This document shows, piece by piece, positions 1-64,000 of a stretch of 64,000 nucleotides of DNA. Numbering within the stretch: the first letter of the stretch is position 1; each line of letters begins with the position of its first letter. Source of the stretch: Chthoniobacterales bacterium (GTDB taxonomy: Bacteria; Verrucomicrobiota; Verrucomicrobiia; Chthoniobacterales; UBA10450); the NCBI GenBank assembly GCA_036270055.1, contig DATBDG010000155.1, positions 13,863 through 77,862 of the forward strand, written 5' to 3'. Position numbers and translations under genes: made by a program. The notes below the pieces were generated by a model. The model ran no database searches, had not been told where the DNA came from, and worked only from the letters and a program-made list of their open reading frames with translations.

Positions 1-676
1 ACGATGGCCTCCTCCAGATTGTTGCCTGGCGCGATGGCAGTGCCCTGGATCGCGACCAGCTGCGTGCTTTGCCAGTTATCGTTCGCCGCGAGAACGCTTC
101 CGTGTTGGCATCGTGAAATCCACTTGCGGATCGGGCAGCACATTGGAAACGCCCCGAATTGCAACCGCAGGCGCTGAGGCCGGGCAGATCGAAAAGAAAG
201 TCTGCGGCTGCCTCGCAACTGGCCGCGGCGTCGATGACGAAGTTGCAGCCGATGGAGGAGATCATCGCCCTGCTCCATGGCGCGCGATCGCTTCGCCGCA
301 ATCCTGATCGGGTTTATCGCGGCCCTCGCGCTCGCAGTGGCGACGATCGGGATTTACAGCGTGATGGATTATGCCGTCTCGGAGCGCATCCGCGAGATCG
401 GCATTCATTTTACCCTGGGCGCACAACGCCGCGACGTTTTCTGGCAAATGATGACGCACGGAATGACCCTCGTCCCCGCGGGGTGGTGATTGGCGCACGT
501 TTGACCTTGGCTTTGCCCGACTCCTGACCGGGCTGCTTTTCGGCATCCGCGCGACTGATCCGGTGATCGTGGCCGGCGCGATTCTGCTCCTCATTACGGT
601 TGCCCTGTTGGCCAATTATTTTCCGCCGCGCCGAGCAACCAAGATCGCACCTCAGGTGGCTTTGAGCTACGAATGA
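1..676 (+). pseudogene. Degraded 3' part of an FtsX/MacB-type (ADOP-like) ABC transporter permease, broken by several frameshifts. The 5' end lies outside the window.
   Basis: The family-typical C-terminal sequence is split over three frames. First ..PMEEIIA in the frame of ORF 159..527. Then ARDRFAAILIGFIAALALAVATIGIYSVMDYAVSERIREIGIHFTLGAQRRDVFWQMMTHGMTLVPAG in ORF 277..489 (stop 487-489). Then GVVIGARLTLAL back in the 159..527 frame (stop 525-527). Then ARLLTGLLFGIRATDPVIVAGAILLLITVALLANYFPPRRATKIAPQVALSYE* ending at TGA 674-676. The intact paralogue at 42796..44013 ends ..PIEALRYE. Confidence 0.55.
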
Positions 677-720
677 TGCCCCGAGATGAAAGTCATCTCG
701 GACCACTTCCCCTAACGAAA

Positions 721-3081
721 CTAGCGCGAGGGCTCGTAGTCTTCGGGCTGCGCTTGTGATTGGCCTTGTGGTTGCGGCGGTTGCTCGCCACCCGCGCGCG
801 GCTCGTCGTAGCGATGCTCACGATCCCGGCCACGACCACCACCACCACCGCGACCCCCGCGGCGATCGCCGCGGTCGCCACGGTCGCGGCGATGTCCGCC
901 GCCGTCGTCGGAGCGGTGTTCGCCGCCACCCTCGCCTTCACCTTCCTCGCCGATCGGCGCGCCGGTTTCGACTTCGCCGCGTTCTTTGAGCGCCGCTTTG
1001 CGCGATAGTTTCACCCGGCCCTTGTCGTCGATGCCGATGCATTTCACCCAGATCATCTCGCCGATCTTGGCCACGTCTTCGGTGCGGCGGACACGGAAAT
1101 CGGCCAGCTCGGAGATGTGAACGAGGCCGTCCTTGCCTGGGAACACTTCCACGAAAGCTCCGAACTCCTTGATCGAAACGACCCGACCGTGATAGGTCTG
1201 GCCGACTTCGATTTCCTTCGTCATGCCGCCGATGATTTCCTTGGCCCGCGCCATCGACTCGCCGCTCGTGGCGTAGATGTGGACGGAGCCGTCGTCTTCG
1301 ATGTTAATCTCGGCGCCGGTCTCAGCCACGATGCCCTTGATCGTCTTGCCACCGGGCCCGATGAGGGCGCCGATCTTCTCCGGATTGATTTTAATCGTCT
1401 CGATCCGGGGCGCGTATTTGCTCAACTCCGGCCGTGGGGCGGCCAGCGCTTCGGCCATGATGCCGAGGATTTTTGTGCGCGCGTCTTTGGCCCGGTGGAC
1501 CGCTTCGGCCAGAATCTTGTGGCTGACTCCGGGAAGTTTCAGGTCGAGCTGGAATCCGGTCACTCCGTCCTTGGTTCCGCAAAGTTTAAAATCCATGTCT
1601 CCGAAATGATCTTCGGAGCCGATGATGTCGGTCAGGAGATTGTAGCGCTTGAGGTTGCCGCTCTCGTCGTTCTCGGTCACGAGCCCGACGGAAATGCCGG
1701 CGACCGGGGTCGAGATTGGAACCCCCGCGTCCATTAAGGCGAGCATGCCGGAACAGACGCTCGCCATCGAGGTCGAGCCATTGGATTCCATCACTTCGCT
1801 CGTGATGCGGATCGCATAACGAAAATCTTCCTCCTTCGGCACGACCGGCTCGACGGAACGCTCCGCGAGCGCGCCGTGACCGATCTCGCGCCGGCTCGCG
1901 CCGCCGAAACGGCCAGTCTCGCCCACACTGAAAGGCGGGAAATTGTAGTGGAGCAGGAAGCGTTTCGATTGTTCGCCGCCACCGTAGGCGTCGATCATCT
2001 GCGCTTCTTCGATCGGAGCGAGGGTGGCGAGCGCCATCGCCTGGGTCTCGCCGCGTTGGAAAATCGCGGAACCGTGCGCGCGCGGCAGGACGCCGACTTC
2101 GCAGGTGATCTGGCGCAGATCGTCGTAGCCGCGACCGTCGACCCGCTTTTGTTTGTCGAGGATGTTGCCCCGGAACGATTTTTTCTGAATGTAATCGAAA
2201 GCCTGGTTGATGGAGAATTTGTCCGCCTCGGGAAATTTCTCGAGCACCGCCGCTTTGACTTCATCGCGCAGGCCGTTGACCGCCTTGCTCCGGGCCACTT
2301 TGCCTTCCGTGTAGAGCGCGGCTTCGATGCGATCACCCGCCACGCGGTCGGCAATTTCGAGCATCTCGGGATTAACTTCCAGGAGCGGCATCTCCCGCTT
2401 CGGCTTGCCGACCTGGGCCGCGAGTTCCTTCTGGATGCGGATCATTTCGCGTGCGTGGCCATGGGCGAACTCGATCGCTTTGATGAACTCGTCTTCCGGC
2501 AATTGGTTGGCCGCGCCTTCGATCATGATGACGTCGTTCTCCGTCCCAACGTAAACGAGATCGAGATCGCTCTGCCCGCGCTCGTCATGAGTCGGGTTGG
2601 CGATGAATCCGCCGTTCACCCGGCCGATCCGAACCGCGCCAATCGGCCCCTTGAATGGAATGTCGGAAACGCAAAGCGCGGCCGAAGCGCCGTTGATCGC
2701 GAGAATGTCGGGATCGTTCTGGCCATCGGCACTGAGGAGAATGCTGATGACCTGGGTGTCGTAAAGGTAGCCGGAGGGAAAGAGCGGCCGGAGCGGCCGG
2801 TCGGTCATGCGCGAGGTGAGCGTTTCCTTTTCGCTCGGGCGCCCTTCGCGTTTGAAATAGCCGCCGGGGAATTTCCCGACCGCGGCCGCCTTTTCCCGGT
2901 AATCGACTGTGAGCGGGAAAAAATCCTGCCCTTCCTTGATCGTGGTGGCCGAGACCGCGCTGGTCAGGACGATGGTTTCGCCGCAGGAAACGATGACGGA
3001 GCCGTCGGCAAGTTTGGCAATTTTGCCGGTTTCAATATTGATTTGCGTGGACCCGATTTGGGCCGTGACCTTGTGTTGCAT
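721..3081 (-). CDS. pnp: Polyribonucleotide nucleotidyltransferase (PNPase) with an about 83-aa Gly/Arg/Asp-rich C-terminal extension
   Basis: ORF 721..3120. Two RNase PH-like domains, KH and S1 are recognisable (..[11 protein letters not shown].., ..FGDMDFK.., ..[17 protein letters not shown]..). The ATG at 3081 ([10 protein letters not shown]..) is preferred over the upstream GTG at 3120. Stop is TAG. Confidence 0.95.
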
Positions 3082-3276
3082 AGCTTGGATTTCTGGATGT
3101 GCGAAACCCAGGCCGGTCACCCTGATTGTAGGTTTTAGATCCGCGGCGCGGCGAAGCTAAAACCTATACTCAAGGTGCACAGACGGCCTGGTCGCCGGTT
3201 GTGTTACTTGGTTTACGCCATGGCTCAAGCGGCGCGCGATGAACGCGAGCGGCGCCAGAGATTGAGCAGCTGCGGG

Positions 3277-3540
3277 TTATTTCCGCAGGTTCAACTTCTC
3301 GATCACCTGCTTGTAGCGATCGTTTTTCGACCGGCTGAGATAATCGAGAAGGCTTCGGCGCGTGGCGACCATCTTGAGGAGGCCGCGGCGCGAGGAATGA
3401 TCTTTGGCGTGACTCTTCAGGTGTTCGGTGAGCTGCGAGATCCGGCGGGTCAAAAGTGCAACCTGCACATCGGCGCTGCCGGTGTCTTTCTCGTGGAGCT
3501 GGAACTCCTTCATGTCCATCGTGTCACTACTTTCTGCCAT
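3277..3540 (-). CDS. rpsO: 30S ribosomal protein S15
   Basis: [68 protein letters not shown].. is classic S15. Internal ATG at 3540 of ORF 3277..3750. Canonical rpsO-pnp arrangement. Confidence 0.95.
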
Positions 3541-3676
3541 AAACGAAGCGGGACAGTAGATGAACTTCGCCGAATCGCAAGTGACGGCAGCGGGTCGGAA
3601 AATCGGACGCGCCTCGGACGGCTCGTGCACTTCACCTCCAGCGTAGCGTCCAGCCGCCAGACAAATCGGCCGCGCC

Positions 3677-4318
3677 TTATTTGCCGTCAGTCCCGAAAGG
3701 ATGCGGGGCGGCCCCTGCATTCTGCATATGGCGAATGTCATTCCCGGCATCTTTCATGTTTTGTTCGCGCCGACGGTCATTCCGCGCGTCCGCGTAGAGG
3801 ATCGCGTTCGAGGCCGCTTTCGCGCGCGCCTGGATCGACTCGGGATTGATATGGAGTTGCCGCGACAAGGCGCCCCACGATTTCACTTTTTCCCGCAGCG
3901 CCAGGATATCGGCCAGACTTTTCCCGCTCCCCTCGGCGACCGAGTTCGCGACGAGCAGCTCGCCGTAACTCAAATGGGTCTGAGCCTGCTGTTCGATCAA
4001 AGTCCGGATTCGGACCTTGGTCTGCCACGCCACGGCTGTCGGCACCAAGCCAACCCCACGCACTGTCTTGCCCCCTTGTTCGTCCAGATAGTAGATGGCA
4101 TTGCGGAAGGCAAAGGTATCCTGCCCGAGAGTCCTGGCCTGGATGGTCGTCACACCGGAATCAGTATACCCGCCGCCAATCAAACTCCCGGCCTTCGGTG
4201 TGACCCAAACGGTTGACTCCTTATTCTTCGATTGAGCTGGCGCTTGGGCCTGAGCCGGGACGCCAGAAAAGAGCACGAGCACCGCGAACACGATAAGGAA
4301 CCGGCACGCTGTTTTCAT
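3677..4318 (-). CDS. Hypothetical secreted protein (N-terminal signal peptide)
   Basis: ORF with [26 protein letters not shown] signal-like N-terminus. No family recognised. Confidence 0.6.
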
Positions 4319-4335
4319 GTCTGGAATTTACGGCC

Positions 4336-4875
4336 TCAGGGCCCTGCAAGACAAGGCTGGAAGTCGAGAATACTTTGCCCAAACAACGGCAGGTTTTGTT
4401 CAAGAGTGGCGCCATTCTTCGTGTCTTTCGCACGACGCAGCGCATCGATCTGCTCTTCCCTCACCTCGTCCGGCGCGCGGGTCAGGGTGCACGCATACTC
4501 GAGAATCGCCCTCTCACGCCGGTCGAAAACTTCCGTCAGGGCGCCGGTTTCGAGAGCTTTTCGGATCGCGCCCGACTTTGCGTCGTCGCCCAGGAGTCGG
4601 CGCTAACCTGTGCAGTGATGCTCGACGCAATAGCCACACCCATTGAGCAGGCTGACGTAAATCCCGATCACTTCGAGCAGCCATTCCAGGAGCGAATTTC
4701 CCCGATGATGCAGCACATTTTTATAAAGCGCCATGTGCGCTTCGAGCGTGTGCGGACGCAGACTATGGATCTGCAAAACGTTGTCGACATAACCGTCCGG
4801 CCCGGCAATTCGCCGGTAAATATCGCGCAACGATTCTTCCGCTTCTCCGGGCTTGATGACGCGAATCCAACTCAT
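4336..4875 (-). pseudogene. Carboxymuconolactone decarboxylase (CMD)/AhpD-like peroxidase-related gene interrupted by an in-frame TAG
   Basis: ORF 4603..4875 ends ..LLNGCGYCVEHHCTG-TAG (stop at 4603-4605). The same frame continues without further stops: RRLLGDDAKSGAIRKALETGALTEVFDRRERAILEYACTLTRAPDEVREEQIDALRRAKD.. to TGA at 4336-4338. Total 180 codons, the normal size and motif order (CxxC..HH..GL..LL) for this family. Confidence 0.6.
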
Positions 4876-4897
4876 CGGTCGTCACTCATCAATTCCC

Positions 4898-5500
4898 TCA
4901 CATCCGGCCGCGCCGCTGATAAAAGTGATACCGACTGAGGATTGATTCGACGTAGCGCTTCGTGCCGGGGAAATCGATGTTCTTTTGAAAGGCACCGGGA
5001 GAGATCGGCTTTTTTCCGTCGCCCCCGGCCCAGCGCTGGGCGCGGCTCGCCCCGGCGTTGTATTCCGCGAGCGCGAACGGCGTTGGATCGCGCGCTTTTT
5101 CCCAGTGCAACATGGCGCGGTGCAGATACCAGGCACCCGCTTCCAGGTTTGTCTTCGGATCGAATAACTCCTCGACCCGGAAATTTTCCAGCTGATGTTC
5201 CTCGGCCCATTCGCGCGCCGCGATCTCGCTCACTTGCATCAGCCCGCGTTCGCCGGCCCCGCCCAGCTTTTGCGGATCGAAGCGGCTCTCCCGCCAGATG
5301 ACCGCCTTGACGAGCATCGGATCGAGCTGGTTCGCAGTCGAAACGACGTGGATAAGTTGATCGTATTGCTGAAAACGGGCCGGGCTGAGCCATTCGTAAA
5401 GGGTGTAAAGCGGATCCCCCGAGCGCCAGGCGAGGAGCCCGATCCCAACCACCGCCGCCAGCAGCACGCAGATGATGAACTTAAAGAGAAACCGAATCAT
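4898..5500 (-). CDS. Lytic transglycosylase (SLT domain), membrane anchored
   Basis: N-terminal TM segment, then ..MLVKAVIWRESRFDPQKLGGAGERGLMQV..AGAWYL..YNAG.. SLT catalytic motifs. Confidence 0.8.
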   Translation of the reverse strand: MIRFLFKFIICVLLAAVVGIGLLAWRSGDPLYTLYEWLSPARFQQYDQLIHVVSTANQLDPMLVKAVIWRESRFDPQKLGGAGERGLMQVSEIAAREWAEEHQLENFRVEELFDPKTNLEAGAWYLHRAMLHWEKARDPTPFALAEYNAGASRAQRWAGGDGKKPISPGAFQKNIDFPGTKRYVESILSRYHFYQRRGRM

Positions 5501-5659
5501 GGGTTCAGCTATGTGGGAGGAGCTTTGCGCCCCGATCGGCCGGACCGCGCAACCGATCGCCGCACAAAGGCACGAAAAATCGGCCGCTGGATAAGTTGGC
5601 TGGCGCGCGGAAAGTCACGGCCAGAATCAATTCACGCAAGATCGGCGTGAGCAATCAAA

Positions 5660-7885
5660 ATGTCCGCCTTTGTCCGAGTCGTGATCGATCGCTCCATCCG
5701 GCGCGAGCTGGATTACAGCGTGCCTGAGACCATGGCCGACAAAGCGGTCGTCGGCTCCCGCGTCCGCGTCCCCTTTCGCGACAAATCGCTCCTGGCCACG
5801 GTGGTCGCGACCCTCGAGGAAAGTTCGGCGAGCGGGATCAAGCCGATCCTGGCATTGTTAGGCGAAAAGCCCGTTCTGAGCCCGTCTCTGATCGACCTCG
5901 CCCGCTGGATGGCGAGTTATTACTGTTGCCCGCTCGAGACCGTGATGCGGAGTCTCCTCCCGCAGGTCATCCGGAAAGCCGAGGTCGGCTGGAAAAAACA
6001 GCTTTTCGTTAGTCCGGCGCGCGCCGCGAATGCGGAGGAGATCGAGAAGCTGCGAAAACGCGCCCCGCGCCAGGCCGAGCTGCTCGAAGCGATCGCGCAA
6101 CTTTCGGAGCCAATTGCCGCCGCCGATCTCCTGCGCCAGACCTCGCTCGAGAACGGAACTCTCCGCGCGCTCGTGAAACGCGGCTTTGCGGAGCTGCGCG
6201 AGCAGGCCGTCGCGCGCGATCCGCACGCCGCCGAGCAGTTCATCGCCGACACTGAGCTGGCGATGAACGAGGAGCAGACCGCGGCCCTCAGGCTGGTCGA
6301 GACCGCGCTCGAAGATCCGCAAACGCATCCGCCGATCCTGCTCCACGGCGTGACCGGGAGCGGCAAAACGGAGGTTTACCTGCAAGCCATCCGCGCCACT
6401 CTCGCCCGCGGCAAAACCGCCATCGTGCTCGTCCCGGAAATTTCCCTCACCCCACAGACGGTCGAGCGTTTCAAGAACCGTTTCGCCGCCCAACCCGACA
6501 GGGTCGCGGTCCTCCACAGCCATCTCTCGGAAGGCGAGCGACACGACGAATGGCACAAGCTGCATGCCGGCCGGGCCCAGATCGTGATCGGCGCCCGCAG
6601 CGCGATTTTCGCGCCCCTCGAAAACCTTGGGCTGATCGTGGTCGATGAAGAACACGAGACCTCCTACAAGCAGGAGGAAGCGCCTCGCTATCATGCCCGC
6701 GATGTCGCTGTCGTTAGGGCAAAGCTCGAAAAATGCGCCGTCGTTCTCGGGACCGCCACCCCGTCGCTCGAGAGTTATCACAACGCCACCCGCGGGAAAT
6801 ACGTCCTGAGCACCCTGACCCAGCGGGTCGATCAATGCCAGATGCCGCTCATCCGCATCGTCGATCTGCGCCAGGAACGCCGGAAAGAAAAAGCCGCCGC
6901 CATTTTGTCGGAGAAACTCCGCACTGCGATGGAGGATCGCCTAACGAAAAAGGAACAGACCATCCTCTTCCTCAATCGCCGCGGCTTTTCCACCTCGCTC
7001 CTCTGCAGCAATTGCGGAAAAGCGCGCGAATGTCCAAATTGCAGCGTCGCCCTCACCTTCCACCGCACGAACGCCCGGCTCAGTTGCCACCTCTGCGGCC
7101 ACAGCGCAGCCGTTCCCGAGCGCTGCCCCGAATGCCACCAAGACGCCCTCATCTACGCCGGTTTCGGGACCGAGAAAGTGGAGGCGAACGTCTCCGCCAT
7201 TTTCCCCAAAGCCGTCGTTAGAAGAATGGACGCCGATTCCATGTCGCGGAAGGACGCGTACCGCGAAACGCTCCATGCTTTTCGCGCCGGCAAGATCGAC
7301 ATCCTCGTCGGCACCCAGATGATCGCGAAGGGCCTGCATTTCCCTAACGTCACCCTCGTCGGCATCATCAACGCCGATCTCGCGCTCCACCTCCCGGACT
7401 TCCGGGCGGGGGAACGAACCTTCCAACTCCTCACCCAGGTCGCGGGGCGGGCCGGCCGGGGCGAAGAACCAGGCGAAGTCTTTGTCCAGACCTACACCCC
7501 GTTTTCACCTTCCATCCAATTTGCGCGTCACCACGATTTCGCCGGTTACTTCGAGCAGGAGCTGGAATTCCGGGAGCGGTGCGATTTTCCACCGTTTAAG
7601 CACGCCGTCCTCATCACCGTGCGCTCCGAGCACGAAGCGCGCGCCGGGTTTTCCGCCGAGACGCTGGCGCGGCGGCTCGGTGAAGCGCTCCCCGGGAAAT
7701 ACACCCTCAGCGCGCCCGCGCCCGCGCCGCTTGAAAAGCTCCAGGGCCATTATCGGTTCCACATTTTGCTCCGCGGCGCGGGGATCGTCAGGCTAAGCCG
7801 CCTCATTCGCGAAACGCTTGACCAGCTTCCGTTCCCCGAAGATGTCTTCGTCGCGGTTGACGTCGATCCGTATCAATTGCTCTAG
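5660..7885 (+). CDS. priA: Primosomal protein N' (replication restart helicase PriA)
   Basis: 741 aa. Walker A GVTGSGKTEVY, DEEH box, Cys-rich zinc region (CSNCGKARECPNCSVALTFH..CHLCGH..CPEC), C-terminal helicase motifs. Confidence 0.93.
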   Translation: MSAFVRVVIDRSIRRELDYSVPETMADKAVVGSRVRVPFRDKSLLATVVATLEESSASGIKPILALLGEKPVLSPSLIDLARWMASYYCCPLETVMRSLLPQVIRKAEVGWKKQLFVSPARAANAEEIEKLRKRAPRQAELLEAIAQLSEPIAAADLLRQTSLENGTLRALVKRGFAELREQAVARDPHAAEQFIADTELAMNEEQTAALRLVETALEDPQTHPPILLHGVTGSGKTEVYLQAIRATLARGKTAIVLVPEISLTPQTVERFKNRFAAQPDRVAVLHSHLSEGERHDEWHKLHAGRAQIVIGARSAIFAPLENLGLIVVDEEHETSYKQEEAPRYHARDVAVVRAKLEKCAVVLGTATPSLESYHNATRGKYVLSTLTQRVDQCQMPLIRIVDLRQERRKEKAAAILSEKLRTAMEDRLTKKEQTILFLNRRGFSTSLLCSNCGKARECPNCSVALTFHRTNARLSCHLCGHSAAVPERCPECHQDALIYAGFGTEKVEANVSAIFPKAVVRRMDADSMSRKDAYRETLHAFRAGKIDILVGTQMIAKGLHFPNVTLVGIINADLALHLPDFRAGERTFQLLTQVAGRAGRGEEPGEVFVQTYTPFSPSIQFARHHDFAGYFEQELEFRERCDFPPFKHAVLITVRSEHEARAGFSAETLARRLGEALPGKYTLSAPAPAPLEKLQGHYRFHILLRGAGIVRLSRLIRETLDQLPFPEDVFVAVDVDPYQLL

Positions 7886-7890: not shown

Positions 7891-8826
7891 CTAGCCGTCA
7901 TCGGGCTGGGTCATCCCCGGCGATTGCGAGGGAATGGGAAACGTCGGCGCGGGTGGAACGGGACCGAGGGCCGGTGGTGGAGGCGCCGCAGCACCACGCT
8001 GGTAGTATTGCATCCGCGTATCGAGAAAGAGCAGCGCCCAATTCCGCAATGGATTGCCAGCCGAAAGATCGCTGTAATAGCGGCGGGCGTAGCCGATTTT
8101 CTCCTCGCCCGCCTGCGGAAAGTTGTTCATATACTCGGCCGTGCCCCACATCTCCCAGGTAAACCCGACGGTGTAGGCGGTCGCATCATCCCGCGGCTCT
8201 CCCGGCATGACATCGACCGCTTCCTGAAATCTTTTGCGCGCTTCGTCGATGCTGTGAAAAGGGCCGCGCTGCGCGTAAAACATCGCGAGACTGCGCAGGG
8301 CGATCATCTTCGCCAGCGGCTCCTGGCTCACCCCCACGGCATTGCGCAGGTACTCTTCCGCTTTGGCCGTGCCGCCGTTCGCGAGCTTGTCTGTGGCCAG
8401 CACGTTGTACTCGGACGAGGAGACATTGTGCGGGATTTCGCGCACGATATTATCGGCCGCCTCGGCCAGGATCATGCGCCTGTTGTTGATGATGCCGCCG
8501 ATGAACTCGCGCTCCTGGGTCGAGAGCTTTTGCGCTTCGGCCGAAGCCAGCCTGGCCTGCTGCTCGCCGCTCAGATCGATCAAGCTCGAAACAATCGCGC
8601 GCAGCGATTCCTGCTTTTTCTGCACATCCTGTTTTCGCCCCTGCACGCCGCTGTAGATCGCGGTCGAGATCGAAAGGAGGAGAGCGAGGAGCCCGGCCAG
8701 GCTCGGCATCTGCCGATACCAGGGGGTTTTCTTCTCGGCCGCGGCGATCTGGAGGGCATCGACCTGATCGCGTAGGAGCTGGACCGCCTGCTCGAGTTTG
8801 GCGACCTGTTCGGGATCGGTCGGCAT
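7891..8826 (-). CDS. Hypothetical membrane-anchored protein (N-terminal coiled coil, one TM segment, Pro-rich C-terminus)
   Basis: Long ORF with ATG start. No family recognised. Confidence 0.55.
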   Translation of the reverse strand: MPTDPEQVAKLEQAVQLLRDQVDALQIAAAEKKTPWYRQMPSLAGLLALLLSISTAIYSGVQGRKQDVQKKQESLRAIVSSLIDLSGEQQARLASAEAQKLSTQEREFIGGIINNRRMILAEAADNIVREIPHNVSSSEYNVLATDKLANGGTAKAEEYLRNAVGVSQEPLAKMIALRSLAMFYAQRGPFHSIDEARKRFQEAVDVMPGEPRDDATAYTVGFTWEMWGTAEYMNNFPQAGEEKIGYARRYYSDLSAGNPLRNWALLFLDTRMQYYQRGAAAPPPPALGPVPPAPTFPIPSQSPGMTQPDDG

Positions 8827-8847
8827 GGCGCGGAATCGTTAGGCGGG

Positions 8848-9126
8848 TTACGCCACGGTCACACCTTGCCAGAAAGCGACGCGGCCTTTGATGTTGGCGG
8901 CCGCTTCTTTCGGGTCGGGATAATACCAGGCGGCGCCTTGGTTGACCTGGCCATCCACGACCACGTCGTAGTAGCTCGCTTCGCCCTTCCACGGACAATG
9001 GGTATGCCGATCGCTCTCCCCAAGATGCTCGCGCCGAATTGAGTCGGCCGGGAAATAATGGTTGCCTTCCACGACGACGGTGTCGTCGCTCTCGGCAATG
9101 GTGGCGCCGTGCCAGGTGGCTTTCAT
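8848..9126 (-). CDS. DUF427 domain protein
   Basis: MKATWHGATIAESDDTVVVEGNHYFPADSI..CPWKGEASYYDVVVDG..NQGAAWYYPDP is the typical DUF427 pattern. ATG at 9126 inside ORF 8848..9159. Confidence 0.7.
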   Translation of the reverse strand: MKATWHGATIAESDDTVVVEGNHYFPADSIRREHLGESDRHTHCPWKGEASYYDVVVDGQVNQGAAWYYPDPKEAAANIKGRVAFWQGVTVA

Positions 9127-9192
9127 AAATTTTTTTGGTCGCGCCGAGCGGCCAGTCACCGCGGTGGTCGATTGGCCGGCTGGAAGCTTGCG

Positions 9193-10425
9193 CTATCTTT
9201 GGGCGATCTTTCGCGTGCCGTCAATCAAGCGCTCGATCTCCTCCTCTGTCGTGTAGCAGGCGCTGCCCGCGCGGACCAACCCCTTCGCCGCCAGACCGAG
9301 GCGCTCCACCACGCTGCTCGCATAAAAGTCACCGTTCGAAACGAAGACCGCGGCGGCCGCCAACTTTTGGGCGACTTCCGCCGACGAAAGACCAGCAACG
9401 GTGAATGCGACTGTCGGTGTTCGGGCAAAATCGGGAGGCGGTCCGTAGACTTTCACGCCCTCGATTTCGCTCAAACCATCCCACAACTGCCTAATGAGGC
9501 GATGGCCGTGCGCACGCAATCCGGCAAACGCGGTTTGGAGGGAAGCGCGCCGCGTTTCCCGCGGAGCGAGCGAGGCGAGAAAATCGACCGCGGCCGACGC
9601 GCCGACGAGCCCTTCGTGATTCTGGGTCCCGGTTTCGACCCGCTCCGGAGCGTCGTTAGGCGCAGGCCCCAGCTTGGGAAAGTCGACCGCCGCCAAAAGA
9701 TCGTGCCGGCCGTAGAGAATCCCAATGTGCGGCCCGTAAAATTTATAAGCCGAGCAACTGAGGAAATCGCAATCGAGCGCCCGCACATCGACCAGCTCGT
9801 GCGGTGCGTAATGGACCGCGTCGACGAAGATCTGCGCGCCAACGCCATGCGCCATTTCTCCCGCGCGCCGGACGTCGGTGATGGTGCCGAGGGCGTTGGA
9901 AGCGGCGCCGACCGCGACCAGTCTGGTCCGCGGGCCCAATTGCCGCCCGAAACCTTCCCAGTCGAGCTGGCCGGTTGCCGGAATCATTTTCGCGACGCGG
10001 ATCGTGACGCCCCGTTCCTTCTCCAGCGCCTGCCAGGGCGCGACGTTGGCGTGGTGATCCAGTTCTGTGACGACGACTTCGTCCCCCGGCCCGTAGCTCC
10101 GGCCCAGGGCCCGCGCGAGGTGGAAAGTGAGCGTGGTCATGTTGGCGCCGAAAGCAATCTCGTTAGGCGAGGCGTGGAGGAAGTCAGCCAGGGCGGCTCG
10201 GGCGCCGGCGATCAGGACGTCGGTTTCGCGGCTGGTCGGAAATTCCCAATGGGTGTTGGCGTTGTGATGCAGCAGGTAGTCGCTCATGGCCGCGACCACC
10301 GCGTTCGGGACCTGGGTGCCACCGGGCCCATCGAAATAGGTGACCGGTTGCTGGTCGTGCTGGCGGCGGAGCGCCGGGAAATGTTCCCGGAGCGCGGGAA
10401 TGGGAATGAGATCGGCTGGATTCAT
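9193..10425 (-). CDS. Class V aminotransferase / cysteine desulfurase-like protein
   Basis: PLP-fold motifs (..FVDAVHYAPH..LSCSAYKFYGPHIGILYG..). ATG at 10425 (MNPADLIPIPALREHFPAL). Confidence 0.85.
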   Translation of the reverse strand: MNPADLIPIPALREHFPALRRQHDQQPVTYFDGPGGTQVPNAVVAAMSDYLLHHNANTHWEFPTSRETDVLIAGARAALADFLHASPNEIAFGANMTTLTFHLARALGRSYGPGDEVVVTELDHHANVAPWQALEKERGVTIRVAKMIPATGQLDWEGFGRQLGPRTRLVAVGAASNALGTITDVRRAGEMAHGVGAQIFVDAVHYAPHELVDVRALDCDFLSCSAYKFYGPHIGILYGRHDLLAAVDFPKLGPAPNDAPERVETGTQNHEGLVGASAAVDFLASLAPRETRRASLQTAFAGLRAHGHRLIRQLWDGLSEIEGVKVYGPPPDFARTPTVAFTVAGLSSAEVAQKLAAAAVFVSNGDFYASSVVERLGLAAKGLVRAGSACYTTEEEIERLIDGTRKIAQR

Positions 10426-10483
10426 GGTCTGCGCGGCAAGCCTATCTTCTGCACCATTTTTGTCGAAGGCGCGCGATTTTGAT

Positions 10484-10527
10484 TGAAAAAAGAAGAAGCC
10501 AGCGGCTGTCAAAACAACCGCTGGCTC
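10484..10527 (-). terminator. Rho-independent terminator candidate downstream of the 10554..12377 gene
   Basis: On the minus strand: AGCCAGCGG-N12-CCGCTGGCT hairpin followed by TCTTCTTTTTT. Confidence 0.5.
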
Positions 10528-13597: not shown

Positions 13598-13609
13598 TCC
13601 GGCTCGTCG

Positions 13610-14125: not shown

Positions 14126-14304
14126 GAAGGCCGTTAAAACAAAATCGCGCGCTCGGGGCGAGAAAAACTTTGCGGTGAAAAAGCCATTGCGTCCGGCAAA
14201 GCCACACGCGGCCACGAACGGCGGAGGACAACTTTCCACTCGCCCTGCGATGTCACTTTGATAATAGAGAATCGGAATGACCAACTGCGCGATTCCCCTT
14301 TTCG

Positions 14305-24924: not shown

Positions 24925-24925
24925 T

Positions 24926-36006: not shown

Positions 36007-36086
36007 GAATTGCCCGTCATTCAGCACCGCTAATTTCAATCACCTCTTGCGGAGTGTGATAACGTTGCGCTTCAGTTCGTTTCTCG

Positions 36087-37103: not shown

Positions 37104-37177
37104 GGACGCCCGTCAGGCTCGACAGAGTCTCGCCCCACCAAAATTGCCGCATTGCCTAACGACACCTAACGAACCAC

Positions 37178-44009: not shown

Positions 44010-44013
<4 letters not shown>
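42796..44013 (-). CDS. MacB-like ABC transporter permease (FtsX domain with periplasmic MacB_PCD)
   Basis: 405 aa. N-terminal TM, large periplasmic domain, C-terminal ..[42 protein letters not shown]. Confidence 0.9.
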
Positions 44014-44759
<746 letters not shown>

Positions 44760-49451: not shown

Positions 49452-49570
49452 GTTTTTTCTTTCTTGTTGGTGATTTGGAAAGTCCTCCATCTCAAGGGCA
49501 TGGCGACGTGTCAAGCACCGAGAAAAATTGATTTGATCGCCCGCCAGACGATCCGGAGCCGAATCTCCGC

Positions 49571-57191: not shown

Positions 57192-57659
57192 ATGCAAAAA
57201 TCAAACTTTCGAATCGTGCCGCTGGCGACCGAAGTCGCGGAAGCGGCGCGCACCCGGGCGCGAGAGGGCGCGCCTGATCATGCCTGCGTCACGGTCGATG
57301 CGCCGACGGGTTATCCTTGCCGGCATTGTTTGCGCTGGGCGCAACCGGACGAGCAGGTCGTTTTGTTCCCCTATGCGTCGATCCCGGCGGGCCGTCCCTA
57401 TGCCGAGAGCGGACCGATCTTCGTTCATGCGGAATCCTGCCCGCGCTATGAGGCGACGGACGAGTATCCGGCGGATTTTCGCAACGGCCGGGTGATTCGC
57501 GCCTACAACTCACAACAGGAGATGATCGCGGCCGAAGCGGCCCCAAATGGCGACGCCGAAACGGTCATTGAAAAGCTGCTCCACAACCCGGAAACTGAAT
57601 TTCTACAGGCCCGCAGCGCCGACCGCGGCTGCTACACCTTCGCCATCCAACGCGCATGA
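57192..57659 (+). CDS. DUF1203 domain protein
   Basis: ..GYPCRHCLRWAQPDEQVVLFPY..PYAESGPIFVHAESC.. is characteristic of DUF1203. ATGA overlap with ada at 57656-57659. Confidence 0.75.
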   Translation: MQKSNFRIVPLATEVAEAARTRAREGAPDHACVTVDAPTGYPCRHCLRWAQPDEQVVLFPYASIPAGRPYAESGPIFVHAESCPRYEATDEYPADFRNGRVIRAYNSQQEMIAAEAAPNGDAETVIEKLLHNPETEFLQARSADRGCYTFAIQRA

Positions 57660-58717
57660 AAACGCTCGAACTCCTTCCGCCTAACGACACCATGTACCAG
57701 GCCCTGGTCGAGAGCGACCCGAGCTTTGAAGGTATTTTCCTCGTCGGGGTCCGCACCACCGGGATCTTCTGTCGTCCGACCTGTAGCGCGAAAAAACCGG
57801 CGCGGCAGAACGTCGAATTCTTCCCTTCGCCTAACGAGGCCTTGATCGGTGGTTATCGGCCCTGTTTGCGTTGTCACCCGATGGATCCGGCGCGTCCCGC
57901 GCCGGAATTGATCGAGCGGCTGCGGGCCGAAGTGGAGAAAGCGCCCGATGGGCGGCTGACCGACAAGGAGCTGGCCTCGCTCGCGATCGATCCTTCGACC
58001 GCGCGGCGCCAGTTCAAGCGCTACTACGGGATGAGCTTCCAGGCCTATCACCGGGCGCGCCGGATGGGCCTCGCCCTGCGCAACGTGCGCCGCGGCGAAC
58101 GCGTCGAGGAGGCGCGCAACGGGAGCGGCTTCAGCTCTGAGAGCGGATTCCGCGAAGCTTTCGCCAAGATCTTCGGCGACCCACCGACAACCGCCAAACG
58201 GCATGACTGCCTTTTCGCCGAACGCCTAACGACTCCGCTCGGCACCATGCTGGCGGTGGCGGATGACGAAGGTCTGCGCCTGCTGGAATTCGGCGATCGC
58301 CGCGCCTTGGAACGCGAGTTGCCGATTCTGCGCCAGCGTCTCGGGAAAAGCGTCGTCCCGGGGGAGCATCCACATCTCACCGCGACGCGAAAACAACTGG
58401 CCGATTATTTTGCCGGGAAGAATCTCGAATTCGACATTCCGCTCGCGCCCGTCGGCTCGGAGTTTCAGCGCCGCGCCTGGGAAGTCCTGCGCTCGGTTCC
58501 ACTCGGGGAAACGCGCTCCTACTCCTGGATGGCAGAGCAGCTTGGTGACCCCGGCGCGCGCCGCGCGGTCGGGCGCGCCAACGGCCTGAACATGATGGCG
58601 ATCATCATTCCCTGTCACCGCGTCATCCGGGCCGACGGCACCCTCTGCGGCTACGGCGGCGGGCTCTGGCGCAAGAAGTGGCTCCTCGAGCACGAACGAA
58701 AGTTCGTTAGGGCGTAA
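57656..58717 (+). CDS. ada: Bifunctional Ada-type regulator / O6-methylguanine-DNA methyltransferase (Ada Zn domain, AraC HTH, MGMT)
   Basis: N-terminus ..GIFCRPTCSAKKPARQNVEFF..GYRPCLRCHP. (Ada zinc site). Central AraC-type HTH. C-terminus ..IIIPCHRVIRADGTLCGYGGGLWRKKWLLEHE (PCHR active site). Confidence 0.88.
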   Translation: MKTLELLPPNDTMYQALVESDPSFEGIFLVGVRTTGIFCRPTCSAKKPARQNVEFFPSPNEALIGGYRPCLRCHPMDPARPAPELIERLRAEVEKAPDGRLTDKELASLAIDPSTARRQFKRYYGMSFQAYHRARRMGLALRNVRRGERVEEARNGSGFSSESGFREAFAKIFGDPPTTAKRHDCLFAERLTTPLGTMLAVADDEGLRLLEFGDRRALERELPILRQRLGKSVVPGEHPHLTATRKQLADYFAGKNLEFDIPLAPVGSEFQRRAWEVLRSVPLGETRSYSWMAEQLGDPGARRAVGRANGLNMMAIIIPCHRVIRADGTLCGYGGGLWRKKWLLEHERKFVRA

Positions 58718-60265: not shown

Positions 60266-61276
60266 ATGACAGCGAATGCAAAACTCGGTTGTCTGAGCGT
60301 CTTTCTCTTCGTCGCTCTCTGCGCCAGTCTCTTCATGAATCTCGTGCTGGCGCTGGGCGCGTTTCAGCGTCTGGCCGATGGCGGTGGCGATGTGGAAATG
60401 CGACCACGCTTTCGCGAGGTCATCCTGGAGCGGGGAGTCGGCCGGAGCGCGAACAAGATCGCGGTTATTTCCCTCCGTGGGATCATCAGCACCGGCGTGC
60501 GCGGCGCCGTCGGGGAATCGATGGTGGACGATCTGCGCTGGCAGTTCGACCAGGCGCGGAAGGACGAGAACGTGCGCGCGGTCGTTTTCGAGGTCGACTC
60601 GCCCGGCGGCGAAGTGACGGCTTCGGACATGATTTACAACGCCGTCGCCAAAACCCGGGCGCAGAAACCGGTCGTGGTTTACATGGAATCGCTCGCCGCT
60701 TCCGGGGGTTATTACGTTTCCTGCGGGGGGAAATATCTGATGGCAAACGAGACGAGTATCACCGGCAGCATTGGCGTCATCATCCAGACGCTGAATTACC
60801 AGCAGCTCTTCGATAAAATCGGGCTCGTGGCCGTCGTCTTCAAAAGCGGAAAATTCAAGGACATGCTGAACGGGGCGCGGCCGATCACGCCTGAGGAACG
60901 CGAGTACATCCAGAGCTTCGTCATGAAGACCTACGAAAAATTTCTCGGGATCGTGGCCCGGGAACGCAACCTCTCGGCTGACGCGCTCCGCAACGGCATC
61001 GCCGACGGACGCATTCTTTCGGGGCGCGATGCGCTCGAATACAAGTTGATCGACGGCCTCGGCCAAATCGAGGATGCCTACGCGAAAGCGAAGGAACTGG
61101 GGCGCGCCCCGGACGCCAAGATCGTGAAGTACGGCCCGCCCTTCAGCCTCGGCACCTTCTTCCGCCTCCTAACCAAGAGCGGCGACACGAAAATCGAACT
61201 CTCCTTTCCCGGGCAGCTCACTCCGCAACTGGAGAGCGGGCGCGCCTATTTTCTGCCCAGCTTTTACGCTCCCTAA
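60266..61276 (+). CDS. sppA: Signal peptide peptidase SppA (36K type)
   Basis: N-terminal TM. ..VRAVVFEVDSPGGEVTASD..ESLAASGGYYVSC..TGSIGV.. ClpP/crotonase-like serine peptidase S49 motifs. ATG at 60266. Confidence 0.85.
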   Translation: MTANAKLGCLSVFLFVALCASLFMNLVLALGAFQRLADGGGDVEMRPRFREVILERGVGRSANKIAVISLRGIISTGVRGAVGESMVDDLRWQFDQARKDENVRAVVFEVDSPGGEVTASDMIYNAVAKTRAQKPVVVYMESLAASGGYYVSCGGKYLMANETSITGSIGVIIQTLNYQQLFDKIGLVAVVFKSGKFKDMLNGARPITPEEREYIQSFVMKTYEKFLGIVARERNLSADALRNGIADGRILSGRDALEYKLIDGLGQIEDAYAKAKELGRAPDAKIVKYGPPFSLGTFFRLLTKSGDTKIELSFPGQLTPQLESGRAYFLPSFYAP

Positions 61277-61291
61277 CGACCCGGCAGCGAG

Positions 61292-62080
61292 ATGGTGAAC
61301 AGCCTGATCAACACGCTGCTCGTGGCCGCGGGCCTCTTCGTCTACCTCTCGCTCTTTCGCCAGGTGGCGGCGCGCGGGAACGGCGCGCCCGCCCTCGGCG
61401 AAAGGGAGTTGGGGCTGCCGGAGGCGATCGCGGCGTTGCTCCTCATTGGTTGGTTTGGTCTGACCGTGCTGGTCGCGGCCAGGGTGCAGCCGGCGGCCCT
61501 GCAAACGCGCGAGCTTCTCTATACCGGCGCATTTAATCTCGCGATCGTCTCGATTTTGACCGCGCTTTTGCAGTTGCGCGGCTTTCGGGTGGTATCGTTA
61601 GGCGGCTTTTCCCGGCTCGGTTTCGGCCGCATCGTGAGCACGGCGGCGGTCCTACTCTTTGCGGCTTATCCGCTCCTCTTCGCGGCGGACAGCATCTCGC
61701 GCTGGGCTCTGGGCGAGGGCGCGGGCAAACAGCAGATCGTCGAGATGTTCACCGGCTCCGAAACGCTCCCGCAGCGCATTCTCATCATTGTGCTTGCGAT
61801 CGCGATCGCTCCGCTTGCGGAAGAATTCATTTTCCGCTTCTTCCTCTATGGCGTGCTCAAGCGGTATCTCGGGCGCGGCCCCGGGCTCGTCCTTAACGCG
61901 CTCCTTTTCGGCGCCGTCCATGTCCATTTGCCGAGTTTCCTCCCACTCTTTGTCCTCGGCGGATGTTTCACCCTCGCCTATGAATGGAGCGGCTCGATTC
62001 TCGTCTCGATGACGATGCACGCCCTCTTCAATTTCTTCTCTCTCAGCGCGCTCGCTTTCCCTGATCTGCTTCCCCAATGA
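61292..62080 (+). CDS. CPBP family intramembrane glutamic endopeptidase (CAAX protease/Abi)
   Basis: Multiple TM segments with ..APLAEEFIFRFFLYG.., ..FGAVH.. and ..HALFNF.. motifs. Confidence 0.8.
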   Translation: MVNSLINTLLVAAGLFVYLSLFRQVAARGNGAPALGERELGLPEAIAALLLIGWFGLTVLVAARVQPAALQTRELLYTGAFNLAIVSILTALLQLRGFRVVSLGGFSRLGFGRIVSTAAVLLFAAYPLLFAADSISRWALGEGAGKQQIVEMFTGSETLPQRILIIVLAIAIAPLAEEFIFRFFLYGVLKRYLGRGPGLVLNALLFGAVHVHLPSFLPLFVLGGCFTLAYEWSGSILVSMTMHALFNFFSLSALAFPDLLPQ

Positions 62081-62967
62081 AACTGCGCGAGGTGGGCGAG
62101 GATCGGCTCATCGCGCAGCTGGTGGCGCGTTTGCCTTCGCGTCCGGACGTTCTGGTCGGACCGGGCGACGACTGCGCAGTGCTGAAGGGACCGGGGAAAG
62201 ACCGGCTGCTTCTTTTCAAAACGGATTGTGTCGTTGCAGGGGTGCATTTTCAGCCTGACGAAAAGCCATCCGCCGTCGGCTGGAAGGCGATGGCGCGCAC
62301 CTTGAGCGATTTTGCGGCCATGTCCGGTTTGCCACACTTTGCTCTCGTCACCCTGATCGCACCGCCAGACCGCGAGATGCGCTGGGTGAAGGAAATTTAT
62401 CGCGGACTGGAGCGGGTGGCGGATCGATTCAAAGTCGCCATCGTCGGGGGGGAAACGAGCGGCACCGACGGCCCGGCGGTCATTTCAATCAGCGCGCTGG
62501 GAAGCGTAGAGAAAAATCGCCGGGTCTCGCGCGGCGGCGGGAAAGCAGGCGATGCACTCTTCGTCACCGGCTGGTTGGGCGGGTCGATTCGGAGCAAACA
62601 CCTGAGGTTCATCCCGCGAATCGAGGAGGCCCGCTGGCTCACGGCCCATTTCAGCATCCATGCGATGATGGATTTGAGCGACGGTCTTGGGGCCGACCTG
62701 CCGCGGCTCGCGATGGCGAGCGGAGTTGGTTTCGAGATCGAGGAAGCGGCCTTGCCATGCAGTCGCGGATCGTCAGTTGAGCGGGCGCTTAACGATGGCG
62801 AAGACTACGAATTGCTTTTCGCGCTTTCCCCTAACGATGCCGAAGTTTTGGAAAAAAAATGGCGCGAGAAATTTCCGCGCCTCCCGCTCACCCGCATCGG
62901 TTGGTTCACTCGTCACGCGTCACCCATCACCCGTCACGCTCTCCATGGCTTCCTTCATTTCCAATAA
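62077..62967 (+). CDS. thiL: Thiamine-monophosphate kinase
   Basis: ..GDDCAVL..DCVVAGVHF..MARTLSDFAAMSG..GGETS..DLSDGLGADL.. AIR-synthase-like ThiL motifs. ATGA overlap with the upstream gene. Confidence 0.88.
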   Translation: MKLREVGEDRLIAQLVARLPSRPDVLVGPGDDCAVLKGPGKDRLLLFKTDCVVAGVHFQPDEKPSAVGWKAMARTLSDFAAMSGLPHFALVTLIAPPDREMRWVKEIYRGLERVADRFKVAIVGGETSGTDGPAVISISALGSVEKNRRVSRGGGKAGDALFVTGWLGGSIRSKHLRFIPRIEEARWLTAHFSIHAMMDLSDGLGADLPRLAMASGVGFEIEEAALPCSRGSSVERALNDGEDYELLFALSPNDAEVLEKKWREKFPRLPLTRIGWFTRHASPITRHALHGFLHFQ

Positions 62968-63364
62968 CGTGGAAGAAACAATCGGTTTCGCGCGGGACTG
63001 GGGCGCGGCCCTCGCGCCTAACGACGTCGTGGCCCTGGTCGGCGATCTCGGCGCGGGCAAAACGCATTTCGTCAAAGGCCTCCTCCAGGCGTTCGCAACC
63101 GCGGAGGAAGCGACCAGTCCCACCTTCACCCTCGTGCACGAATATCGCCGCGGCCGGCTGCCGGTCTTTCATTTCGATTTCTACCGGATCGAGCATCCGT
63201 CGGAGATCGATCACATCGGCTTCGGTGATTATCTAGAGGAAGGCGGCGTCGCGATCATCGAATGGGCCGATCGTTTTCCGCAGGTTTTTCCGCCGCGGAC
63301 CCGCTGGCTGCGGATCAAAGCCACGAGCGAATCGCAACGCACCATCACGGAGGACGAAAGGTGA
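62945..63364 (+). CDS. tsaE: tRNA t6A37 biosynthesis protein TsaE (ATPase)
   Basis: ATG at 62945. ..VVALVGDLGAGKTHFVKGL..SPTFTLVHEY..HFDFYR..GVAIIEWAD... Confidence 0.85.
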   Translation: MASFISNNVEETIGFARDWGAALAPNDVVALVGDLGAGKTHFVKGLLQAFATAEEATSPTFTLVHEYRRGRLPVFHFDFYRIEHPSEIDHIGFGDYLEEGGVAIIEWADRFPQVFPPRTRWLRIKATSESQRTITEDER

Positions 63365-63954
63365 AAGTCCTCGCGCTCGAACTCTCCTCGCCGGTCGGGA
63401 GCGTGGCTTTTTGCGATGAAGAAGGCGGGCGGGATTTGCGGGCCTTCCCTGCCGATCGGAAAGACTCGGGATTTTTTTACCAAAATTTGAGCGCGATTTA
63501 TCAGCAGTTCGGCCCGCCCGAGCTGATCGTGGTCGGTACCGGGCCGGGATCGTACGCCGGCGTTCGGATAGCGATTGCGACCGCCCTGGGTTTGAAAGCC
63601 GCTTCCGGAGCGCGGCTGCTCGGTCTTCCTTCGATCTGCGCGGTCGATCGCGCGGAGTATTTTTTTGTCGGGGACGCCCGCCGGAATTCGTTTTTTTTCG
63701 CTCACGTGAAGGAGGGCCGCTGCCTCGAAGGTCCAACCCTGGCGAGTGCGGGCCAGATCGAAGCGCGGATGAAGGGGGCGCCGCAACTGCCGGTAATCGC
63801 GACCCAGCCTCTGTCGCCGTTTCTGGATGTGATGGTGGAGGATCCCTCCGCCCTGCGTCTGGCGGAACTCGCGATCGCCCACGATGAGGGCGCGGAAATG
63901 CCGCTCGAGCCGATCTATTTACGCGAGCCCTACATCACAACTCCACGAAGATGA
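63361..63954 (+). CDS. tsaB: tRNA t6A37 biosynthesis protein TsaB (YeaZ)
   Basis: GTG at 63361 overlaps the tsaE stop (GTGA). VKVLALELSSPVGSVAF..VVGTGPGSYAGVRIAIATALGL... Confidence 0.8.
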   Translation: MKVLALELSSPVGSVAFCDEEGGRDLRAFPADRKDSGFFYQNLSAIYQQFGPPELIVVGTGPGSYAGVRIAIATALGLKAASGARLLGLPSICAVDRAEYFFVGDARRNSFFFAHVKEGRCLEGPTLASAGQIEARMKGAPQLPVIATQPLSPFLDVMVEDPSALRLAELAIAHDEGAEMPLEPIYLREPYITTPRR

Positions 63955-64000
63955 ATTCACCGATTGCAGAACGTTGTTGGGCAGAAGTGGAAGGAGCCGC
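63951..64000 (+). CDS. 5' end of an unidentified gene (runs off the window)
   Basis: ATG at 63951 overlaps the tsaB stop (ATGA). Only 16 codons are visible (MNSPIAERCWAEVEGA). Confidence 0.3.
   Translation, partial: MNSPIAERCWAEVEGA

Follow-up and report, generated by a model that had tools for sequence, protein, structure and literature searches.

The question raised by a 64,000-nucleotide stretch of DNA from a Chthoniobacterales bacterium (contig DATBDG010000155.1; this whole stretch is referred to below as the window) is what keeps one short, non-palindromic word at high density on both strands of what is otherwise ordinary housekeeping DNA. In the window, the 9-mer TCGTTAGGC is found in 30 copies where an order-3 Markov model predicts 0.6 (z = 38, ~50-fold), and it was the top word of an unbiased k-mer scan under the same model, with no comparable second word. 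From the features of the word and its distribution among related genomes, we lean toward reading TCGTTAGGC, which takes the form TCGTTAGGCG in the genome of the window, as an uptake-sequence-like, lineage-specific self-recognition word, comparable to the DNA uptake sequences (DUS) of Neisseriaceae and the uptake signal sequences (USS) of Pasteurellaceae. An earlier note on this DNA had proposed the same likeness. Its sequence-level parts are upheld by the lack of common flanks and of strand skew, the use of four reading frames, a 2–4-fold excess of encoded tripeptides and the presence of dialects, and preferential uptake is what we infer from them.

Order-3 Markov models and dinucleotide-preserving shuffles were used as expectation, and the comparison sample consisted of 80 nrdJ neighbourhoods of related genomes (loci numbered from L001; 1.5 Mb in total, ~23 kb per relative) beside the 64 kb examined from the window's own genome. 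The octamer CGTTAGGC occurs 32 times in the window (18 on the plus strand and 14 on the minus strand), compared with 1.50 ± 1.16 and a maximum of 5 in 100 shuffles, and the decamer TCGTTAGGCG is present 21 times versus 0.09–0.26 expected. The hexamer GTTAGG/CCTAAC was counted 51 times (24 plus and 27 minus). Recounting reproduced exactly the hexamer and octamer totals of the earlier note, together with all of its listed one-mismatch variants and all of its coordinates apart from a CCTAAC placed at 41326, a typing error for 41316. The frequency test that it had suggested gave a value far above Markov expectation at order 3 (30 versus 0.6). A maximal-order model was uninformative (37 × 32 / 41 = 29 versus 30 observed), because the 8-mer and 7-mer sub-words occur almost solely within the word itself.

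The conserved core comprises nine bases. In an alignment of 535 sites the information content is ~0 outside positions 1–9(10) and no flank is common to the copies, while the tenth base, G, is a preference confined to the window genome and its three closest relatives. Since the flanks carry no information, the word is not a repeat family, in line with the earlier note's statement that the copies form no mobile repeat. A high copy number and nothing more favors the idea that a dispersed mobile repeat, similar to repetitive extragenic palindromes (REP) or miniature inverted-repeat transposable elements (MITE), has the word at its center, or that the word is an artefact of conserved peptides or codons, and we assign these explanations a negligible probability. 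A REP/MITE repeat was rejected on the basis of the absence of information beyond 9–10 bases, the lack of a hairpin partner and the presence of in-frame copies in conserved housekeeping genes. The peptide or codon artefact was rejected on the basis of four frames used in both senses and of identical peptides that are spelled differently in word-less relatives.

The coding context of the copies indicates where the pressure acts. The window has 61% G+C, is ~90% coding and contains 59 genes, called with our own heuristic from codon statistics. Thirteen of the 30 perfect copies read as Pro-Asn-Asp/Glu on the complement strand (G CCT AAC GAx), seven as Ser-Leu-Gly (TCG TTA GGC), four as Arg-Leu-Thr (CGC CTA ACG) and one in the fourth open frame; three overlap stop codons and two are intergenic. 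Across 23 genomes all four stop-free frames are used (83/71/34/30), and the two other frames, which carry TAG or TAA, are not used at all inside genes. Although TTA and CTA each make up 2% of the Leu codons in the window and CCT 8% of the Pro codons, the word encodes 14 of the 15 Pro-Asn-Asp/Glu tripeptides, 7 of the 11 Ser-Leu-Gly and 4 of the 7 Arg-Leu-Thr. The rare codons cited in the earlier note were recovered, TTA at 32101 and 32794 in frame in nrdJ and AGG at 6716 and CTA at 6941 in priA, as were six stop codons said to be supplied by the word: our gene calls end at the same places (13610, 21558, 34150, 49571, 58707 and 61274–61276), all within perfect or one-mismatch copies.

The same imprint is found in the proteins of related genomes, where expectations were derived from amino-acid composition. 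In 22 further genomes bearing the word (145,000 codons), Pro-Asn-Asp/Glu was observed 104 times versus 25 expected (4.2×), with 84% of the occurrences spelled by the word, and Ser-Leu-Gly reached 1.7× expectation with 52% so spelled. Fourteen genomes that carry a second, unrelated word, AAGATCGACA (word 2, TCGTTAGGC being word 1), showed the corresponding excess for Val-Asp-Leu (2.7×, 78% spelled with word 2), Lys-Ile-Asp (4.0×, 76%) and Arg-Ser-Thr (2.1×, 39%). Reciprocal controls, taken from the other word's group and from word-less genomes, were mostly near 1 (range 0.45–1.7×), with at most 24% of tripeptides word-spelled. In L073, which bears both words, both tripeptide sets are saturated (4/4, 9/10, 15/15 and 4/4). 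The pressure acts on DNA and not on protein, as the earlier note had claimed; four frames and both senses are used, and permissive tripeptides are near-saturated despite their rare codons. Findlay and Redfield described this pattern, an excess of tripeptides combined with spelling by the word, when they studied the uptake sequences of Haemophilus, Actinobacillus and Neisseria (PMC2817400).

The individual copies in the window are given below with coordinates, strand and setting; each line is a perfect TCGTTAGGC copy unless another form is named, (G) marks the tenth base where it was noted, and sense and antisense refer to the gene.

6939–6947, minus strand: TCGTTAGGC(G), inside priA, antisense; CGC CTA ACG, Arg-Leu-Thr
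8836–8844, plus strand: TCGTTAGGC(G), intergenic, between genes 7891–8826 and 8848–9159
9653–9661, plus strand: class-V aminotransferase gene (9193–10512, minus), antisense; Pro-Asn-Asp
10160–10168, plus strand: same class-V aminotransferase gene, antisense; Pro-Asn-Glu
13607–13615, plus strand: overlaps the TAA stop of gene 13610–14215 (minus)
17471–17479, minus strand: hybrid histidine kinase gene (15698–17986, minus), sense; TCG TTA GGC, Ser-Leu-Gly
18440–18448, plus strand: YfiR-like gene (17989–18531, minus), antisense; Pro-Asn-Glu
22865–22873, minus strand: glycosyltransferase-2 gene (22712–23614, minus), sense; Ser-Leu-Gly
23999–24007, plus strand: glycosyltransferase-1 gene (23611–24933, minus), antisense; Pro-Asn-Glu
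24739–24747, minus strand: same glycosyltransferase-1 gene, sense; Ser-Leu-Gly, so that both orientations occur in this gene
27406–27414, plus strand: gene 26829–28226 (minus), antisense; Pro-Asn-Glu
32099–32106, plus strand: octamer copy ACGTTAGGC, one mismatch to the 9-mer, nrdJ, sense; ACG TTA GGC, Thr-Leu-Gly
32791–32799, plus strand: nrdJ, sense; Ser-Leu-Gly, kept in 25 word-bearing genomes
33609–33617, minus strand: nrdJ, antisense; Pro-Asn-Glu, common to 18 word-bearing genomes
34147–34155, plus strand: overlaps the TAA stop of an MgtE-family gene (34150–36039, minus)
37154–37162, minus strand: spacer between two paralogous SPFH/Band-7 genes
37164: one-mismatch copy TCGTTAGGT, 10 bases from the 37154 copy in direct orientation (pair 37154–37172)
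39607–39615, minus strand: gpmI (39367–40902, minus), sense; Ser-Leu-Gly
40166–40174, plus strand: gpmI, antisense; Pro-Asn-Glu
41315–41323, minus strand: alkaline phosphatase gene (40998–42257, plus), antisense; Pro-Asn-Asp; the copy misplaced at 41326 in the earlier note
42634–42642, plus strand: rhodanese gene (42348–42713, minus), antisense; Pro-Asn-Asp
44393–44401, plus strand: ABC ATPase gene (44010–44759, minus), antisense; Arg-Leu-Thr
44732–44740, minus strand: same ABC ATPase gene, sense, fourth frame (GTC GTT AGG CTG)
48468–48476, plus strand: cupin gene (48263–48592, minus), antisense; Pro-Asn-Asp
49569–49577, minus strand: forms the TAG stop of an acyl-CoA dehydrogenase gene (49571–50755, minus)
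50404–50412, plus strand: same acyl-CoA dehydrogenase gene, antisense; Arg-Leu-Thr
53286–53294, plus strand: prpD (52560–53954, plus), sense; Ser-Leu-Gly
53779–53786, plus strand: octamer copy CCGTTAGGC, one mismatch to the 9-mer, prpD
57679–57687, minus strand: ada-like gene (57656–58717, plus), antisense; Pro-Asn-Asp
57829–57837, minus strand: same ada-like gene, antisense; Pro-Asn-Glu
58224–58232, minus strand: same ada-like gene, antisense; Arg-Leu-Thr
61595–61603, plus strand: CAAX-protease-like gene (61292–62080, plus), sense; Ser-Leu-Gly
63016–63024, minus strand: tsaE (62945–63364, plus), antisense; Pro-Asn-Asp

A Pfam scan of the window identified pnp, rpsO, priA, nrdJ, gpmI, a cluster of glycosyltransferase and ABC-transporter genes, prpD, a PEP-mutase/isocitrate-lyase family gene (prpB-like), citrate synthase, the ada-like gene, tsaE and ribosomal proteins. 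All of this is normal housekeeping content. Rfam and tRNA scans returned tRNA-Ser and tRNA-Arg and nothing else, so the word has no RNA explanation. Positions 1–6900 (FtsX-like fragment, pnp, rpsO, SLT transglycosylase and the start of priA) contain no perfect copy, with three one-mismatch copies at 710, 1814 and 5855 and a fourth at 6006; the longest other gap measures 5.4 kb (27.4–32.8 kb), and none of this is significant at n = 30. A partial self-repeat directly follows the word at 13607–13622 (TCGTTAGGCGTTAGAC). Separately, the palindrome ACTAGT is present in 6 copies versus 0.62 expected in the window (order-3 Markov, z = 6.8), although the numbers are small.

Conservation in related genomes was examined at the level of individual sites. 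Among word-bearing genomes, the perfect 9-mer was kept in 63 of 90 site-by-genome comparisons versus ~8 predicted from the divergence of the flanks, a large contrast even though the comparisons lack phylogenetic independence. Identity was 0.94 within the word versus 0.77 in the 60-base flanks, and at the same positions in word-less genomes it was 0.4–0.6 versus 0.75 in the flanks. The comparison of sites with their flanks that the earlier note had called for therefore shows better-kept sites, in word-bearing genomes only. A codon alignment of nrdJ from 77 genomes illustrates the same behavior. At an invariant Arg-Ser-Leu-Gly, word-1 genomes use TCG TTA GGC and the other genomes that keep Ser-Leu-Gly use AGC CTC GGT and similar codons; at the window site 32791, other lineages either use different codons (AGC CTC GGT, for example) or have another residue in third place. 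At an invariant Leu-Arg-Ser-Thr-Arg-Glu, word-2 genomes use YTA AGA TCG ACA AGA GAA and word-1 genomes use CTG CGC AGC ACG CGC GAG.

The word is also symmetric between the strands. Perfect copies in the window are divided into 16 plus and 14 minus, interleaved along a monotonic cumulative GC skew. Word strand against gene strand gave 54/60/57/47 in 23 genomes, and the pooled loci gave 111 versus 107. What orientation bias remains tracks the gene strand alone and is explained by coding constraints. Strand skew, which the earlier note had named as a sign against uptake, is absent within the 64 kb and in the pooled loci. These observations bear on a further explanation, in which the word would be a Chi-like recombination hotspot or a polar signal for a translocase (RecBCD, AddAB, FtsK) similar to the FtsK-orienting polar sequences (KOPS) or architecture-imparting sequences (AIMS). 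Chi, KOPS and AIMS words are short, non-palindromic, over-represented and lineage-variable. The word found here shares this character, and Chi (GCTGGTGG) is over-represented in Escherichia coli (PMC1939737). However, polar signals act in one orientation, are replichore-skewed and are modestly enriched (~6-fold for Chi versus ~145-fold for a pasteurellacean uptake word; PMC1939737), whereas the present word is strand-symmetric and ~50-fold enriched, with an orientation bias that coding constraints explain. An explanation of the Chi/KOPS type is close to refuted, and we regard it as very improbable.

The mismatch spectrum of the 9-mer was compared with an order-3 simulation. One-mismatch forms are in excess (35 observed versus 13.6) and two-mismatch forms are depleted (127 versus 172), as if near-matches were converted upward into the perfect form. 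A graded spectrum of this kind counts in favor of the uptake reading. The depletion, together with the excess of the perfect form, also fits directional conversion and raises the possibility of a sequence-specific mutation or repair bias, in which a methyltransferase and a very-short-patch-like mismatch nuclease, or biased gene conversion of near-matches, would generate the word. The highly iterated palindrome HIP1 of cyanobacteria (GCGATCGC) would be the model for such a process. HIP words override codon preference and are without proven function. No other class of words is known to reach such abundance, and HIP words likewise lie inside genes and vary between lineages (PMC1939737). Word 2 additionally contains GATC and TCGA. 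On the other hand, HIP words are palindromic and tied to methyltransferase sites, and neither word described here is palindromic. No repair bias is known to recognise nine asymmetric bases in a row and to correct mismatches at each of them, and patch repair predicts removal of the CpG-deamination form TTGTTAGGC, yet this is the commonest one-mismatch form in the window (7 copies). No methyltransferase or nuclease gene was found among the 59 window genes in the Pfam scan. A repair bias is thus, in our estimate, improbable and the third of the explanations that we retain. A HIP-type signal from GCGATCGC itself was considered and rejected, as its 20 sites in the window versus 10.6 expected (for example at 284, 17463 and 61796/61802) exceed expectation only ~2-fold, in keeping with composition and with the coding of Ala-Ile-Ala. 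Among raw 8-mers in the window, CGATCGCG is the commonest, with 40 copies.

The distribution of the words among related genomes is patchy and lineage-specific. NrdJ relatives place the window in uncultured Chthoniobacterales (Verrucomicrobiota, 'Spartobacteria', in the neighbourhood of Candidatus Udaeobacter), and the closest locus, L001, has a NrdJ protein 97% identical and aligned DNA ~84% identical, the latter indicating a species different from that of the window. Word 1 is dominant in one large clade (L001–L019, L022 and L072) at 0.13–1.26 copies per kb and is also found in three separate lineages (L040/L060, L044/L051 and L073); the 22 further word-1 genomes carry 0.25–1.3 copies per kb. 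Word 2, AAGATCGACA(A/T), is dominant in another large clade at 0.35–2 copies per kb (L045, L047–L050, L052, L056, L062, L064–L066, L069, L071, L073, L076, L038 and L043), where TCGTTAGGC is rare except in L073. It is likewise symmetric between the DNA strands, saturates Val-Asp-Leu, Lys-Ile-Asp and Arg-Ser-Thr codons, and occurs once in the window versus 0.54 expected. The 20.3-kb locus L073 (JBEEGX010000037.1) carries both words, with 17 copies of TCGTTAGGC and 40 of AGATCGACA (0.84 and 1.97 per kb), and could be a dual-specificity or transitional lineage. In many of the 80 related genomes neither word is enriched, and a tree of the adjacent acyl-CoA dehydrogenase gene showed the same patchy distribution.

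Within word 1, dialects were also identified. The form with a trailing G, TCGTTAGGCG, is limited to the window, L001, L002 and L006; ACTCGTTAGGC is preferred in L044 and L060, and TTCGTTAGG(C) in L073 and L008 and more weakly in L012; other sub-clades prefer the flank ...GGCnA. L020 prefers the one-base variant TCGTCAGGC (6 copies versus 4 of TCGTTAGGC). Possible one-base or truncated dialects were seen in L077 (TCGTTAGC, 6 copies) and L078 (GTTAGGCA, 7 copies), and L057 has a weak excess of CGCGCAAC(G), 14 versus 2.7 expected. Raw k-mer counts are inflated in some loci by short tandem arrays (CACCGACA... in L009, GACTCCGAC... in L003 and L022, and CGACACCAA... in L022), which probably encode repetitive protein segments. 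The pattern of dialects, AAGATCGACA, both words or none implies that specificity depends on a discrete determinant open to gain, loss or exchange. On whether Chthoniobacterales carry a modular self-DNA recognition whose specificity has repeatedly been gained, lost or swapped (TCGTTAGGC, AAGATCGACA, both or none), we find ourselves evenly divided. If so, Proteobacteria would no longer be the only known bearers of an uptake-sequence system, and the one seen here would have an exchangeable receptor; or else this would be an undescribed genome-marking mechanism, such as biased conversion or self/non-self discrimination unconnected with uptake.

Small type IV pilin-like genes with a prepilin N-methylation motif (GFTLVEIMIVVAII...) were noticed in several loci, mostly as a tandem pair. 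In L065 they lie at 18669–19067 and 19199–19597 on the plus strand, between TPR-repeat genes and 5.5–6.5 kb downstream of nrdJ (up to ~12 kb in other loci), and similar open reading frames are present in L042, L045, L047, L048, L049, L056, L064, L075 and L077. The genomes that carry them are word-2 genomes and two in which neither word is enriched (L042 and L077), and no such gene was found at the corresponding position in word-1 loci or in the window. As evidence for a receptor they were rejected, since their neighbours are TPR genes and not pilus assembly genes and since they are present in the word-less L042 and L077.

The lineage-specific distribution could also track the specificity of a DNA-binding protein. 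The word would then be bound by an abundant chromosomal protein that is indifferent to orientation (for instance a nucleoid-associated protein, a condensin loader or a factor that discriminates self from non-self), and selection inside the cell would keep the sites dense. This explanation is in agreement with an exact, non-palindromic word that is present on either strand and keeps its positions among word-bearing genomes, and the spacing in the window is slightly more even than random, as a weak trend (coefficient of variation 0.76 versus 0.97, p ~0.08). Against this, the sites known for nucleoid proteins or segregation are either degenerate or palindromic, or else less frequent by orders of magnitude. 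Selection on each of thousands of sites would be tiny, yet 84% of Pro-Asn-Asp/Glu has been converted, a process that entails rare codons and altered amino acids, and one genome is saturated for two unrelated words. We therefore consider a binding-site role unlikely, while placing it second.

With a mobile repeat, a peptide or codon artefact, a polar Chi/KOPS signal and a HIP palindrome excluded, what remains is an orientation-independent, lineage-specific process that favors an exact 9–10-base word wherever it is tolerable. Biased DNA uptake with recombination, as in DUS and USS, is the only characterised process with such a signature, and for this reason an uptake-like system was ranked first, a binding-site role second and a repair bias third. 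Uptake, a receptor and recombination are what we infer as the drivers. Word-bearing double-stranded DNA would be bound, in either orientation, by a DNA receptor on the cell surface that belongs to a competence or type IV pilus system, so that fragments from the same species would be imported preferentially. Homologous recombination would then fix word-carrying alleles, and repeated biased transmission ('molecular drive') would spread the word to all positions that proteins tolerate, including synonymous sites, permissive tripeptides, stop codons and spacers. As indirect context, ComEC homologues, some adjoining RuvB, have been reported in soil Verrucomicrobia populations of the Angelo meadow (PMC7305173, Table S3), a site from which several of the related metagenome-assembled genomes appear to derive, and the pilin-like genes mentioned above are present in related loci.

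Several points weigh against an uptake-like system. ComEC is near-universal in bacteria (PMC6299819), and its presence is therefore no discriminator between the explanations. The Pfam scan identified no competence, pilus or receptor genes among the 59 window genes. Strand symmetry covers 64 kb and 23-kb loci, which are local stretches rather than whole replichores. The word is not clearly enriched in intergenic DNA (2 of 30 window sites; 18% outside genes versus 14% non-coding DNA in 23 genomes), and close inverted pairs (≤60 bases), which could form terminator hairpins, are rare (5 of 404 word-1 sites); these two features are common in DUS and USS and not defining. The word-bearing organisms are uncultured. 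All of the observations would also fit any orientation-independent process that favors the word inside the cell.

To our knowledge, uptake-type self-recognition words have been confined to two proteobacterial families for some forty years. A 2025 survey lists such words in Neisseriaceae and Pasteurellaceae only (bioRxiv 10.1101/2025.10.24.684340), and our full-text literature searches returned no relevant mention of either word, nor any report on Verrucomicrobia, Chthoniobacter or Udaeobacter that describes uptake sequences or words over-represented to a similar degree. An uptake-like system in uncultured soil Verrucomicrobiota, if true, would be a third, independent case, and species-biased natural transformation would be shaping one of the most abundant soil lineages. 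The division into clades with either word, both or neither amounts to a natural experiment, in which phylogenetic profiling could identify the specificity determinant. The word could also serve as an inexpensive marker when sequences are binned or foreign DNA is sought, and as a guide to the design of DNA that these unculturable bacteria might import. Because its costs are visible here as rare codons and a 4-fold tripeptide excess, the system also bears on the debate between molecular drive and selection.

Finally, the word can be set beside the known uptake sequences. The DUS of Neisseriaceae is GCCGTCTGAA with its dialects and is recognised by the minor type IV pilin ComP. By inspection, neither word 1 nor word 2 nor their complements resembles GCCGTCTGAA or the USS form AAGTGCGGT, which indicates an independent origin if the words serve in uptake. 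The words share with the DUS a non-palindromic sequence of 9–12 bases, an enrichment of tens- to hundreds-fold, a density of ~0.5–1.3 copies per kb, an occurrence on both strands in genes and spacers, and dialects that differ by one base or in the flank along the phylogeny (PMC3630211); dialects and switching are known in both Neisseriaceae and Pasteurellaceae (PMC3630211). They differ in their unrelated sequence and phylum (Verrucomicrobiota), in the location of ~90% of copies within genes versus ~35% in Neisseria (PMC2817400), in the near absence of terminator-capable inverted pairs, and in sister lineages that carry a wholly unrelated second word, with one genome carrying both. The USS of Pasteurellaceae (AAGTGCGGT, Hin type; ACAAGCGGT, Apl type) is similar in its 9-base core, its mostly genic copies (65% in H. 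influenzae; PMC2817400), its reading-frame bias, the 2–4-fold excess of encoded tripeptides and the graded excess of one-mismatch forms (PMC2817400; PMC1939737). In contrast to the USS, the word described here has an unrelated sequence without AT-rich flanking segments, and the two words of these soil bacteria are not variants of each other.

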